From a virus, in the IMG/VR virus record IMGVR_UViG_3300009164_000047, positions 33,705-97,704 of that record: a DNA stretch of 64,000 bases; one strand, given 5' to 3'. Of this stretch, positions 16,650-33,941 are shown in pieces. The first letter of the stretch is position 1. Each line of letters begins with the position of its first letter. The translations under genes were made by a program, and so were the position numbers. The notes below the pieces were generated by a model, which worked only from the letters and a program-made list of their open reading frames with translations, ran no database searches and had not been told where the DNA came from.

Positions 16650-16678
16650 TTGACCATAACTAAATACTATGATACAAT
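16650..16678 (+). promoter_or_regulatory. Sigma70-type promoter
   Basis: TTGACC-N17-TACAAT, with TAAATA inside the spacer. Confidence 0.6.
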
Positions 16679-16688
16679 AGGAACTGTT

Positions 16689-16838
16689 ATGGAACTAATA
16701 CGATACAGAGATGCGGGTATGAATACATATACTTGGTTTTATGTAAATGAAAAGAAACATTGTATTAGTCCTTTTTTTGATAGTGAGCAAGAAGCCAAAG
16801 ACTGGTTTGAAAAAGTCTTTGACGAAATACAAGAGTAA
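16689..16838 (+). CDS. Small hypothetical protein (MELIRYRD..., 49 aa)
   Basis: ATG just downstream of the promoter and AGGAA. Confidence 0.6.
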   Translation: MELIRYRDAGMNTYTWFYVNEKKHCISPFFDSEQEAKDWFEKVFDEIQE

Positions 16839-16844
16839 GGTTTT

Positions 16845-16946
16845 ATGTTTGAAAATTGGCATTGGGTTTATATGTGGGGCATTTTAGTTGTAGCCAACTA
16901 TATGTTCTGGATAGTAAAAAGTCTTTTTGACAACGTGAAAGAGTAA
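16845..16946 (+). CDS. 33-aa membrane peptide (MFENWHWVYMWGILVVANYMFWIVKSLFDNVKE)
   Basis: TAAGG RBS and one hydrophobic helix; not in the ORF track. Confidence 0.55.
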   Translation: MFENWHWVYMWGILVVANYMFWIVKSLFDNVKE

Positions 16947-17355
16947 GTTATTGCTGTATGAAGCAAAGAGAAAAGTGTTCTGGACGGGGGTGCGAATCCC
17001 CCCAGGTCCACCATAAGGAAGTTTGTGAAAAGTAAAAGTAAGTTCAGTCGTTTTAATCTTAAAGGCAACATTATGTGGTGCCTAAATTTGCGTAACGGAT
17101 GGGTAAGAATTTACAACACTATAATTCGTTGGAATACCGATTGGACAACTAATTATAGATACTTTTCAATAGAACAAATAAAAGTTTCTTTATGATGGGC
17201 CTGCATAGTTTCGACAGGGCAAGTAGTAACAGAGTGGACAGCACGGTAGGCGATGACCGTTAATCAAGCAAAAAAAGTAAACGCAAACGACTCACAGTTC
17301 GCATTAGCAGCCTAAACACTGCTTAGGGTAAGACATACCTCGTAACAGAAAATCA
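16947..17355 (+). ncRNA. ssrA: Circularly permuted two-piece tmRNA: acceptor piece ~16947-17013, coding piece 17197-~17355
   Basis: The T-arm GGGGG-TGCGAAT-CCCCC plus CAGGTCC-ACCA (ends 17013) precedes GGGCCTG (17197). These form a 7-bp acceptor stem with G3.U70. Also TTTCGAC, helix pairings CAGGGCA/TGTTCTG and ACAGCA/TGCTGT, and the tag frame ANDSQFALAA* at 17283-17315. Confidence 0.95.
17025..17195 (+). CDS. 56-aa ORF within the tmRNA intervening segment (MKSKSKFSRFNLKGNIMWCLNLRNGWVRIYNTIIRWNTDWTTNYRYFSIEQIKVSL)
   Basis: GTG start after TAAGGAAG; the uninterrupted frame fills 171 of the 183 nt between CCA and G+1. Confidence 0.6.
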   Translation: MKSKSKFSRFNLKGNIMWCLNLRNGWVRIYNTIIRWNTDWTTNYRYFSIEQIKVSL

Positions 17356-17383
17356 GAAAAGGCTCTTAGGAGCCTTTTTCTTT
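17356..17383 (+). terminator. Rho-independent terminator after tmRNA
   Basis: AAAAGGCTC-TTAG-GAGCCTTTTTCTTT. Confidence 0.85.
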
Positions 17384-33317: not shown

Positions 33318-33941
33318 TTACTTTTTAGTTGCCACTATTGAATATATATATTTAATTCTTAAATCAATAGTGGCTGAAGATGTTAGTTTTAAACCACCTG
33401 AAAATTGACCGTGACTATGACCTTCACCTGGGGCATTTAAGTTGGTTGGACTATATAGCGGGCTTTCATATGCTAAAACAGTTCTTGAATATGGTCCCGG
33501 GGCATTTGCTGGGTGACCGGTGTAAGCCCCACCAGGTACGTGAACTGGGTTCAACTTGCTCCCGAGTGTTGGTCCCGATGTGTGTGTTGTCGCTGTATTT
33601 AGAAAAGCAGAATTTTTACCATAGTGTAAATGAGATGGCATTTGTGCAACAGTAGTATAGTTTATTCCGGTTTCAAAAAGCCATTCACCTGTTTCTTCAG
33701 GAAATGCAAATACGGTTGAAGGATACGTTGATGAAAAAGGATTTGATCCTCCATCACTCAACGTTGCACCTGTAGTAACTCTAAGTGTCATGTTGCTTGT
33801 ATCTATTTGTGTCCATCCAAGTGGTGCAAATGCTTGAGCAAAAAACATAGTAGTGCCTTTGTATTCTGGTTCAGGATCCGGAATATAAATTCCTATCGCT
33901 GCATAACCTTTTGATCCTGTAATTCCGCTTAATAATGGCAT
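33318..33941 (-). CDS. Tail-collar/short fibre-like protein
   Basis: FFAQAFAPLGW...LRV, QMPSHLH and HSH motifs, IKY. Confidence 0.65.
   Translation of the reverse strand: MPLLSGITGSKGYAAIGIYIPDPEPEYKGTTMFFAQAFAPLGWTQIDTSNMTLRVTTGATLSDGGSNPFSSTYPSTVFAFPEETGEWLFETGINYTTVAQMPSHLHYGKNSAFLNTATTHTSGPTLGSKLNPVHVPGGAYTGHPANAPGPYSRTVLAYESPLYSPTNLNAPGEGHSHGQFSGGLKLTSSATIDLRIKYIYSIVATKK

Follow-up and report, generated by a model that had tools for sequence, protein, structure and literature searches.

The spacer of a two-piece tmRNA gene as a probable expression slot for small genes of freshwater jumbo phages

Why should a protein-coding gene stand between the two pieces of a tmRNA gene? The question is raised by a stretch of viral DNA of 64,000 nucleotides (positions 33,705 to 97,704 of the IMG/VR record IMGVR_UViG_3300009164_000047; the window, below), which contains a circularly permuted, or two-piece, transfer-messenger RNA (tmRNA) gene at 16947-17383 on its plus strand. 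Between the CCA end of the upstream piece and the first nucleotide (G+1) of the downstream piece lies an intervening segment, or spacer, and an initial annotation made from the sequence alone had noticed that this segment is almost entirely an open reading frame (ORF) of 56 codons with its ribosome-binding site in a stem. Two ideas were put forward there, namely that translation of the ORF is coupled to maturation of the tmRNA, or that the spacer is a swappable slot for genes. The analysis described here assigns a probability of roughly 80% to the reading that the intervening segment of this two-piece tmRNA gene has been co-opted as a slot in which small accessory genes are expressed.

The tmRNA gene and the ORF in its spacer

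The window belongs to an IMG/VR virus record of 97.7 kb, 28% complete according to CheckV, and therefore the phage genome should be about 350 kb; related contigs have lengths up to 340-380 kb, and the source is a large uncultured freshwater jumbo phage. The tmRNA gene matches the Rfam family RF04321 with 131.3 bits against a cut-off of 47 (16952-17315, model positions 1-213); it is the one RNA gene that Rfam finds in the window, and the same match is recovered from the whole record. ARAGORN calls the same tmRNA with the tag ANDSQFALAA. The order of the gene is permuted, the CCA-bearing 3′ half (CCA at 17011-17013) standing upstream of G+1 (17197) and of the tag frame (17283-17315). By hand reading, the acceptor stem has 7 bp, GGGCCUG with CAGGUCC, which gives the G3.U70 identity pair for alanine, and the tag ends in ...ALAA before its stop codon. 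Among related loci, the acceptor piece is conserved from GTTATTGCTG onward, and the Rfam alignment begins at 16952. The parts of the gene are as follows.

16947-17013, plus strand: tmRNA acceptor piece, comprising the 5′ strands of helices formed with the coding piece, the T-arm, the acceptor-stem 3′ strand, the discriminator and CCA
17003-17009, plus strand: acceptor-stem 3′ strand CAGGTCC, followed by the discriminator A17010 and the encoded CCA at 17011-17013
17012-17024, plus strand: 5′ arm of the closing stem, which holds the ribosome-binding site TAAGGAAG (hand reading, relatives and fold)
17014-17196, plus strand: 183-nt spacer between the two tmRNA pieces, in this case a gene cassette
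17025-17195, plus strand: 56-aa gene with a GTG start and a TGA stop at 17193-17195, for a basic, Trp-rich, predicted small beta protein
17182-17194, plus strand: 3′ arm of the closing stem, which codes for the final residues (K)VSL and includes the stop codon's first two bases
17197-17356, plus strand: tmRNA coding piece, with G+1, the acceptor 5′ strand GGGCCTG, the D-loop equivalent and the tag frame; its 3′ end is approximate
17283-17315, plus strand: tag reading frame, ANDSQFALAA and stop

Sequence and ORF reading confirm to the base the positions that the initial annotation had given for the ORF and the arms of the stem, and its length for the spacer. The ribosome-binding site TAAGGAAG at 17014-17021 precedes the ORF, and CATAAGGAAGTTT (17012-17024) can pair with AAGTTTCTTTATG (17182-17194) over 13 bp including three G.U pairs by hand reading. 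This stem is joined to the 7-bp acceptor stem by the pair A17010-U17196 and one C.A mismatch, forming a near-continuous helix of about 22 bp that appears in the minimum free energy (MFE) and centroid folds of the precursor alike. The earlier statement that the stem extends the acceptor helix and buries the Shine-Dalgarno (SD) sequence and part of the stop codon was thus borne out, with one correction to its extent: the stem takes in not only the ribosome-binding site and two stop-codon bases but also the last two bases (CA) of the CCA tail. The TGA at 17193-95 lies opposite this tail, its T and G pairing with A76 and C75 and its A facing C74 as a C.A mismatch.

Comparison of the 56-codon ORF with its relatives, which comprise two database proteins and about 20 loci found by protein searches and locus scans, shows it to be a genuine gene that evolves under purifying selection. 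Wherever a contig spans the flanks, these relatives lie between the CCA and G+1 of a tmRNA. Nine distinct DNA versions are available, among which divergent pairs have a ratio of nonsynonymous to synonymous differences (pN/pS) of 0.07-0.25. Variable columns number 10, 4 and 15 at codon positions 1, 2 and 3, and the summed pN/pS is 0.21 in frame versus 0.60 and 2.29 in the shifted frames. Two indels, a 6-nt insertion in L125 and a 12-nt deletion in L140, both keep the frame. Homologues and a low ratio, the checks that the initial annotation had proposed for the ORF, thus both turned up.

When a family profile was scored against 1.84 billion representative proteins, 22 clusters were obtained at E ≤0.001, four of them at ≤1e-10, and about 19 of the 22 are small proteins of 42-83 aa with the motif RYxLKG..WCLN..NGW.R...IRWNT.W. 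Three long matches (P0009, P0017 and P0023) are TPR or low-complexity repeat proteins and were judged spurious. W18, G25, W26 and W36 are invariant in 30 sequences of the family. AlphaFold predicts four beta strands from these 30 sequences, with a mean predicted local distance difference test score (pLDDT) of 83.5; 11 close sequences give a poorer model (pLDDT 63.7). Only unnamed clusters were found in the ESM Atlas, with scores of 0.91-0.92. The homologues L268-L279 (45-61% identity, on viral contigs) are ordinary small genes in gene arrays without tmRNA flanks, and the gene in the window is therefore best regarded as a normal member of a phage family that was captured in a spacer.

Automatic annotation of these genes goes astray at the tmRNA. 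The two database proteins, P0001 and P0002, are mis-extended into it. P0002, a 56-aa homologue in another tmRNA, has no stop codon of its own, reads through G+1 and the whole 5′ part of the tRNA-like domain, and ends in frame with the tag of that tmRNA (...ANDELYAMAA); gene callers give it 98 aa.

Conservation of the stem and exchange of cassettes

Exact-pattern scans of IMG/VR with two T-arm variants, together with the loci found through the ORFs, gave at least 223 loci with at least 171 distinct spacers; all counts and proportions of spacers below are among the matches listed in IMG/VR. The spacers range from 9 to 491 nt, and the closing stem was analyzed in the 165 of them that have at least 40 nt. 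At each of spacer positions 2-10, 90-100% of these spacers have a pair with the mirror position, and three to six types of base pair occur, i.e., covariation; pairing drops to about 50% from position 12. The stem has a mean length of 7.5 bp, which collapses to at most 1.7 bp if the register is shifted by one to three bases. The share of G.U pairs reaches 39% in a stem column, which implies that the stem is a structure of the plus-strand RNA and not an inverted repeat of the DNA; an origin of the arms from a DNA-level inverted repeat or a miniature inverted-repeat transposable element (MITE) was rejected, since G.U pairs are A.C mismatches on the other strand. As judged from this covariation, an RNA-level stem of 11-13 bp, prolonging the acceptor helix, bounds the spacer. 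Self-complementarity is seen in the Rfam consensus spacer as well, and the closing stem is a general feature of the precursor, with coding and non-coding spacers alike, of which coding cassettes make use.

Of the 171 distinct spacers, 65 (about 38%) are of a coding type, in which the 5′ arm contains a ribosome-binding site and the stem is directly followed by a start codon and an ORF. They are AT-rich (GC about 0.31) and begin with TAAGGA, TAAAGG, AAAGGA or the like, the ORF filling the remainder. Their design follows the stem: the 5′ arm is the ribosome-binding site, the start codon stands where pairing ends, and the final codons, together with the stop in about half of these spacers, are contributed by the 3′ arm. 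Indeed, the commonest site of the start codon is spacer base 12 (31 of the 65), exactly at the edge of the stem, and 35 of the 65 ORFs stop on a TGA opposite the CCA tail. In another 13, no stop occurs before G+1 and the frame runs 12-39 nt into the tRNA-like domain. Thirteen ORFs of unrelated proteins share a ...(K)VSL end because the 3′ arm encodes their last residues. The non-coding spacers (about 60%) are hairpins mostly of 50-120 nt with GC of about 0.39 and without a ribosome-binding motif; some of them are conserved between contigs, e.g. those of L008, L046 and L049 (115 nt) and of L018 and L038 (66 nt).

The simplest dismissal of the ORF would be that it arose by chance in a structured non-coding spacer, or that the tmRNA gene is decaying after being broken by an insertion. 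Long ORFs are fairly frequent in AT-rich sequence, certain short spacers hold only trivial ORFs, and the minus strand has an ORF covering at least 75% of the spacer in 11 of the 109 spacers of 80 nt or more. On the plus strand the same coverage is reached in 71 of the 109, and it goes with the ribosome-binding motif (63 spacers with such an ORF and 5 without where the motif is present, versus 8 and 33 where it is absent; odds ratio about 52). Shuffled interiors of the window spacer keep its ORF open in only about 0.6% of trials. Frame-specific purifying selection, in-frame indels, free-standing homologues and Pfam domains in sister cassettes likewise speak against chance. As to decay, the tRNA-like domain, G3.U70, CCA and the tag frame are intact, the pieces of the tmRNA are abundant in RNA libraries, and identical tmRNA backbones occur with a spacer of coding length (132 nt) and with short non-coding ones (57 and 67 nt). 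Chance and decay are therefore already largely refuted by the data, and we consider them very improbable. Stops, frameshifts and a lack of SD and stem conservation, the pattern that the initial annotation had named as speaking against its proposal, are contradicted by the frame-keeping indels, the covarying stem and the tie between motif and ORF.

The 65 coding spacers encode at least 35 unrelated clusters of peptides with 23-123 residues, and additional spacers with a start near base 24 have ORFs of up to 151 residues. Among the contents, the ORF of L193 is a thioredoxin with WCGPC (Pfam, 75.4 bits, above the cut-off), that of L080 is a GNAT acetyltransferase and those of L006 and L017 are CxxCxxCC proteins (both above the curated Pfam cut-offs); many of the remaining ones are single-helix membrane peptides. 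Eight other cassette families have pN/pS of 0.07-0.8, mostly below 0.4.

Contents and backbones occur in different combinations. Seven sets of tmRNA loci have identical backbones of 172 nt with differing spacers (the above 57, 67 and 132 nt are an example), and the 56-aa gene itself is also found in tmRNAs whose acceptor stem (GGGGGTG with CACCTCC), T-arm and tag are all different. In L124 (3001-3330), a single spacer contains two tandem cassettes with the junction ...AAGTTTCTTTA|ATAAGGAAGTTTTATG...; in the first of the two the terminal TGA is lost, and its stop is instead a TAA overlapping the region where the second begins. A further case adjoins the tmRNA of the window.

16845-16946, plus strand: gene for a 33-aa membrane-type peptide (MFENWHW...), just upstream of the tmRNA

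This gene is the spacer cargo in five relatives (L004, L033, L040, L050 and L084; 87-90% aa identity), and the DNA homology is bounded by the ribosome-binding arm and the 3′ arm. In these relatives the frame stays open past G+1 and extends 39 nt into the tmRNA; the copy in the window is closed four codons further on by a TAA of its own.

Such comparisons show that cassettes are exchanged between phages at the stem arms and the conserved flanks of the tmRNA. The swappable gene slot is accordingly the alternative of the initial annotation that the data back most strongly: it is well supported by the 35 or more unrelated ORF groups, by identical backbones that carry differing cassettes and by the recurrence of one cassette in different backbones, and related spacers, which had been suggested as the place to look, vary in length, often carry ORFs and all keep a compensatory closing stem.

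Another variation concerns the leader. The first 27 nt of the spacers of L016, L062, L080 and L120 contain a mini-ORF of five codons (TTG ATA AAT ACT AGA TGA) that overlaps the main ATG as ATGA. The main ORFs that follow are otherwise unrelated, one of them being the GNAT protein, and start with MRI(N/K)E(I/L) or MQINEI, as does the ORF of L055. The arrangement suggests translational coupling and a shared point of recombination.

Fast turnover and unrelated contents could also mean that the cassettes are selfish hitch-hikers, i.e., neutral or parasitic insertions kept by the conserved tmRNA flanks and a tolerant spacer with no benefit to the phage. A precedent exists in the ORF of the rRNA intervening sequence of Coxiella, which is apparently untranslated and decaying (PMC4990558). 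However, the spacer ORFs are under purifying selection, they have good ribosome-binding sites and encode enzymes that look functional, such as the thioredoxin, and no self-moving nuclease or recombinase was seen among those examined. We therefore regard this explanation as improbable, if less so than a chance ORF.

Expression and its relation to tmRNA processing

Signals that could delimit a transcript stand on both sides of the locus.

16650-16678, plus strand: sigma-70-like promoter candidate, TTGACC-17 nt-TACAAT with TG before the -10 hexamer; 10 of 12 matches, weak
17357-17383, plus strand: intrinsic-terminator-like hairpin AAAAGGCTC TTAG GAGCCTTTT followed by a T-run (hand reading; the same hairpin is also listed on the minus strand)

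The number of promoter-like sites in the region does not exceed that in shuffled sequences, which makes the candidate at 16650 a weak one; it could drive a small operon ending with the tmRNA. A 62-aa ORF is listed at 16650-16838, and its TTG start is the -35 hexamer of the promoter-like site; its true start is probably the ATG at 16689 (MELIRYRDAG...).

RNA was looked for in four lake metatranscriptome runs, used as assembled contigs. In these libraries, the summed word depth is in the hundreds for the acceptor piece and in the thousands, about ten times as high, for the coding piece (17197-17359). Some RNA contigs bridge the acceptor piece, a spacer and the coding piece. One of these has a non-coding spacer of 58 nt, and another contig has the first 17 and the last 16 bases of the window spacer with a different interior (depth 94-203, in all four runs). 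Contigs are absent beyond about 17360, which may reflect divergence of the related phages and is not evidence of termination. What the contigs show is only the presence of spacer-containing molecules in RNA libraries, and in lake plankton phage tmRNAs like this one seem to be plentiful.

A coupling of translation to RNA processing is plausible and could work as follows. The spacer gene would be co-transcribed with the tmRNA, possibly from the promoter-like site at 16650, and translated from the nascent or unprocessed precursor, ribosomes loading before the 3′ arm is made or as the helix breathes. The folded stem would clamp the two halves of the tRNA-like domain across the long insert and, as a side effect, might dampen initiation after synthesis of the 3′ arm. 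The pieces would then be separated by RNase P cleaving at G+1, by an endonuclease (RNase E, or else RNase III with the roughly 22-bp helix as its substrate) and by trimming of the 3′ end to CCA, and this processing would end the life of the spacer message. The cassettes without a stop before G+1 could be finished only on an uncut precursor, and they are therefore the best hint that translation and processing compete.

The initial annotation had preferred a stronger version, in which the stem silences the message until cleavage by RNase III, E or P frees the arm and turns translation on; in a variant of it, only nascent transcripts are translated, processing turns translation off, and output is quantitatively tied to tmRNA biogenesis. 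The position of the ribosome-binding site within the stem and of many start codons exactly at its edge would suit such gating, and the 13 of 65 ORFs without a stop would turn stop-less after RNase P cleavage. The helix is long enough for RNase III, and in E. coli the 3′ maturation of tmRNA is initiated by RNase III or E (PMC3968760). Moreover, coding stems are systematically weaker than non-coding ones, as if tuned by G.U pairs (median -8.4 versus -11.6 kcal/mol and 2.3 versus 1.1 G.U pairs, in sequences that are related to one another). However, a purine-rich motif in one arm may by itself account for the weaker stems, and about -8 kcal/mol over a long loop may merely dampen initiation. Above all, the stem did not evolve as a switch, because the same stem exists in non-coding spacers. 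Control of translation by cleavage is thus possible and, in our estimate, rather unlikely.

Slightly more doubtful still is a self-limiting pulse, in which cassettes would be translated only before their own 3′ arm is transcribed or while the precursor is uncut, and the products of the stop-less cassettes (about 20%) would, after cleavage at G+1, be tagged and destroyed through the parent tmRNA itself. If true, early accessory proteins of the phage would be made in a self-limiting pulse timed by the maturation of the tmRNA.

Several points weigh against the spacer as an expression slot, or against the details of its working given above. Translation of the spacer ORFs is a deduction from comparison of sequences, and the processing enzymes and the order of events are transferred from the maturation of E. 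coli tmRNA (PMC3968760). The P values for the association of motif and ORF and for the difference between coding and non-coding stems are inflated because the sequences are phylogenetically related. RNA contigs cannot show ends, strand or level and may contain DNA, and the interior of the window's own spacer has no cover in the four contig sets, which reflects the strains present. The 56-aa protein has no meaningful score in Pfam, no match in PHROGs and no nuclease domain; its profile found a single chance match among PDB sequences (E = 0.044), and its model found nothing at E ≤0.001 with Foldseek against PDB and a best Z of 4.4, within noise, with VIA-align wide. Finally, a search for SmpB (PF01668) in the 97.7-kb record, about 28% of the genome, was negative; presumably the copy of the host is used.

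As to that host, a blastn search of the locus against 50,697 phage records gave as its sole match a 71-nt T-arm in Xanthomonas phage BUDD, and no cultured relative. The acceptor piece of the phage-type permuted tmRNA also occurs on contigs binned to two metagenome-assembled genomes (MAGs) of Bacteroidota, L141 of Crocinitomicaceae and L142 of Haliscomenobacter, and in one of the two the spacer carries an ORF for a 23-aa membrane peptide. A standard tmRNA gene is present as well in the Haliscomenobacter MAG. These contigs hint weakly at Bacteroidota as hosts, and mis-binned phage contigs are an equally likely explanation.

Known systems and meaning of the spacer genes

Two-piece tmRNAs are known from Alphaproteobacteria, some Betaproteobacteria, Cyanobacteria and aquatic phages (RF04321; PMC11915505; PMC9004378; PMC3968760). 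A survey found 53 of them among 18,146 phage genomes (PMC9004378), and the tmRNA database of 2025 holds 97,179 sequences, 79 of them from phages (PMC11915505). The window shares with the known permuted genes the order of acceptor piece with CCA, spacer and coding piece at G+1, the G3.U70 pair, the ...ALAA tag and a spacer hairpin that continues the acceptor stem. It differs in that the consensus spacer has about 25 positions and is discarded, whereas here 183 nt carry a gene under selection, and in that the arms of the stem incorporate that gene's ribosome-binding site and stop codon. The unusual spacer contents reported in the database paper are a tRNA-Ala gene and a repetitive element, nuclease genes being mentioned only in group I introns, and protein genes in phage tmRNA spacers are not described there (PMC11915505). 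Full-text literature searches likewise found no description of protein-coding spacers in tmRNA genes.

The closest analogue appears to be the ORF-bearing intervening sequence of 23S rRNA (S23p; Coxiella and Leptospira), which is excised by RNase III without religation (PMC4990558). In both cases an ORF lies in a stem-closed segment of the precursor of a stable RNA, and acquisition is horizontal; the mature rRNA is left in two pieces once the segment is cut out, as the tmRNA would be. The rRNA element, however, sits in helix 45 and carries one conserved ORF family, not dozens. In addition, the ORF of Coxiella seems to be silent and eroding, whereas ORFs of the type seen in the window have strong ribosome-binding sites and signs of purifying selection, and excision by RNase III would here be only an extrapolation. 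The gene in the window does not belong to the S23p type, its host gene being a tmRNA and its 56-aa product having no meaningful Pfam match.

Protein genes are interspersed in the tRNA cluster of phage T4, and group I introns of tRNA and tmRNA genes carry genes for homing endonucleases. As proposed for the window, one transcript yields a stable RNA and a message, and an RNA gene of a phage shelters accessory or mobile ORFs. In contrast to these, the ORF of the window lies between the halves of one RNA, with no ribozyme or religation, and its cargo is no nuclease. Introns in tmRNA genes are known (PMC11915505). A group I intron with a homing nuclease was nevertheless rejected for this locus: no Rfam intron match exists in the whole window, the insert lies between CCA and G+1 and not in the T-loop, and no nuclease domain was found with Pfam or PHROGs.

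For the possible working of the stem, two other RNAs are instructive. The hok mRNA is inhibited by a fold-back of its 3′ end on its 5′ end, and the maturation gene of MS2 is translated only on nascent chains. In these RNAs as in the window, the ribosome-binding site pairs with a distant downstream segment, and translation is to be expected before the partner is made or after it is removed. The resemblance is one of possible working only, for the window has no homology to them, no toxin and no antisense RNA, and its partner strand is the end of the coding sequence and the leader of the tRNA-like domain.

If the spacer genes are expressed as proposed, the intervening segment of permuted tmRNAs, so far treated as throw-away RNA, is in these phages a widely used and rapidly exchanged expression site for small genes. 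After rRNA intervening sequences, it would be the second clear instance in which the precursor of a stable RNA harbours a message, and the first to be found for tmRNA. Gene callers and tmRNA annotators will systematically miss or mis-start such genes. They may also serve as a compact natural system for the competition between translation and tRNA-type processing on one transcript. For the freshwater jumbo phages themselves, the spacer would be a hotspot for accessory genes, among them those for a thioredoxin, an acetyltransferase and many membrane peptides.

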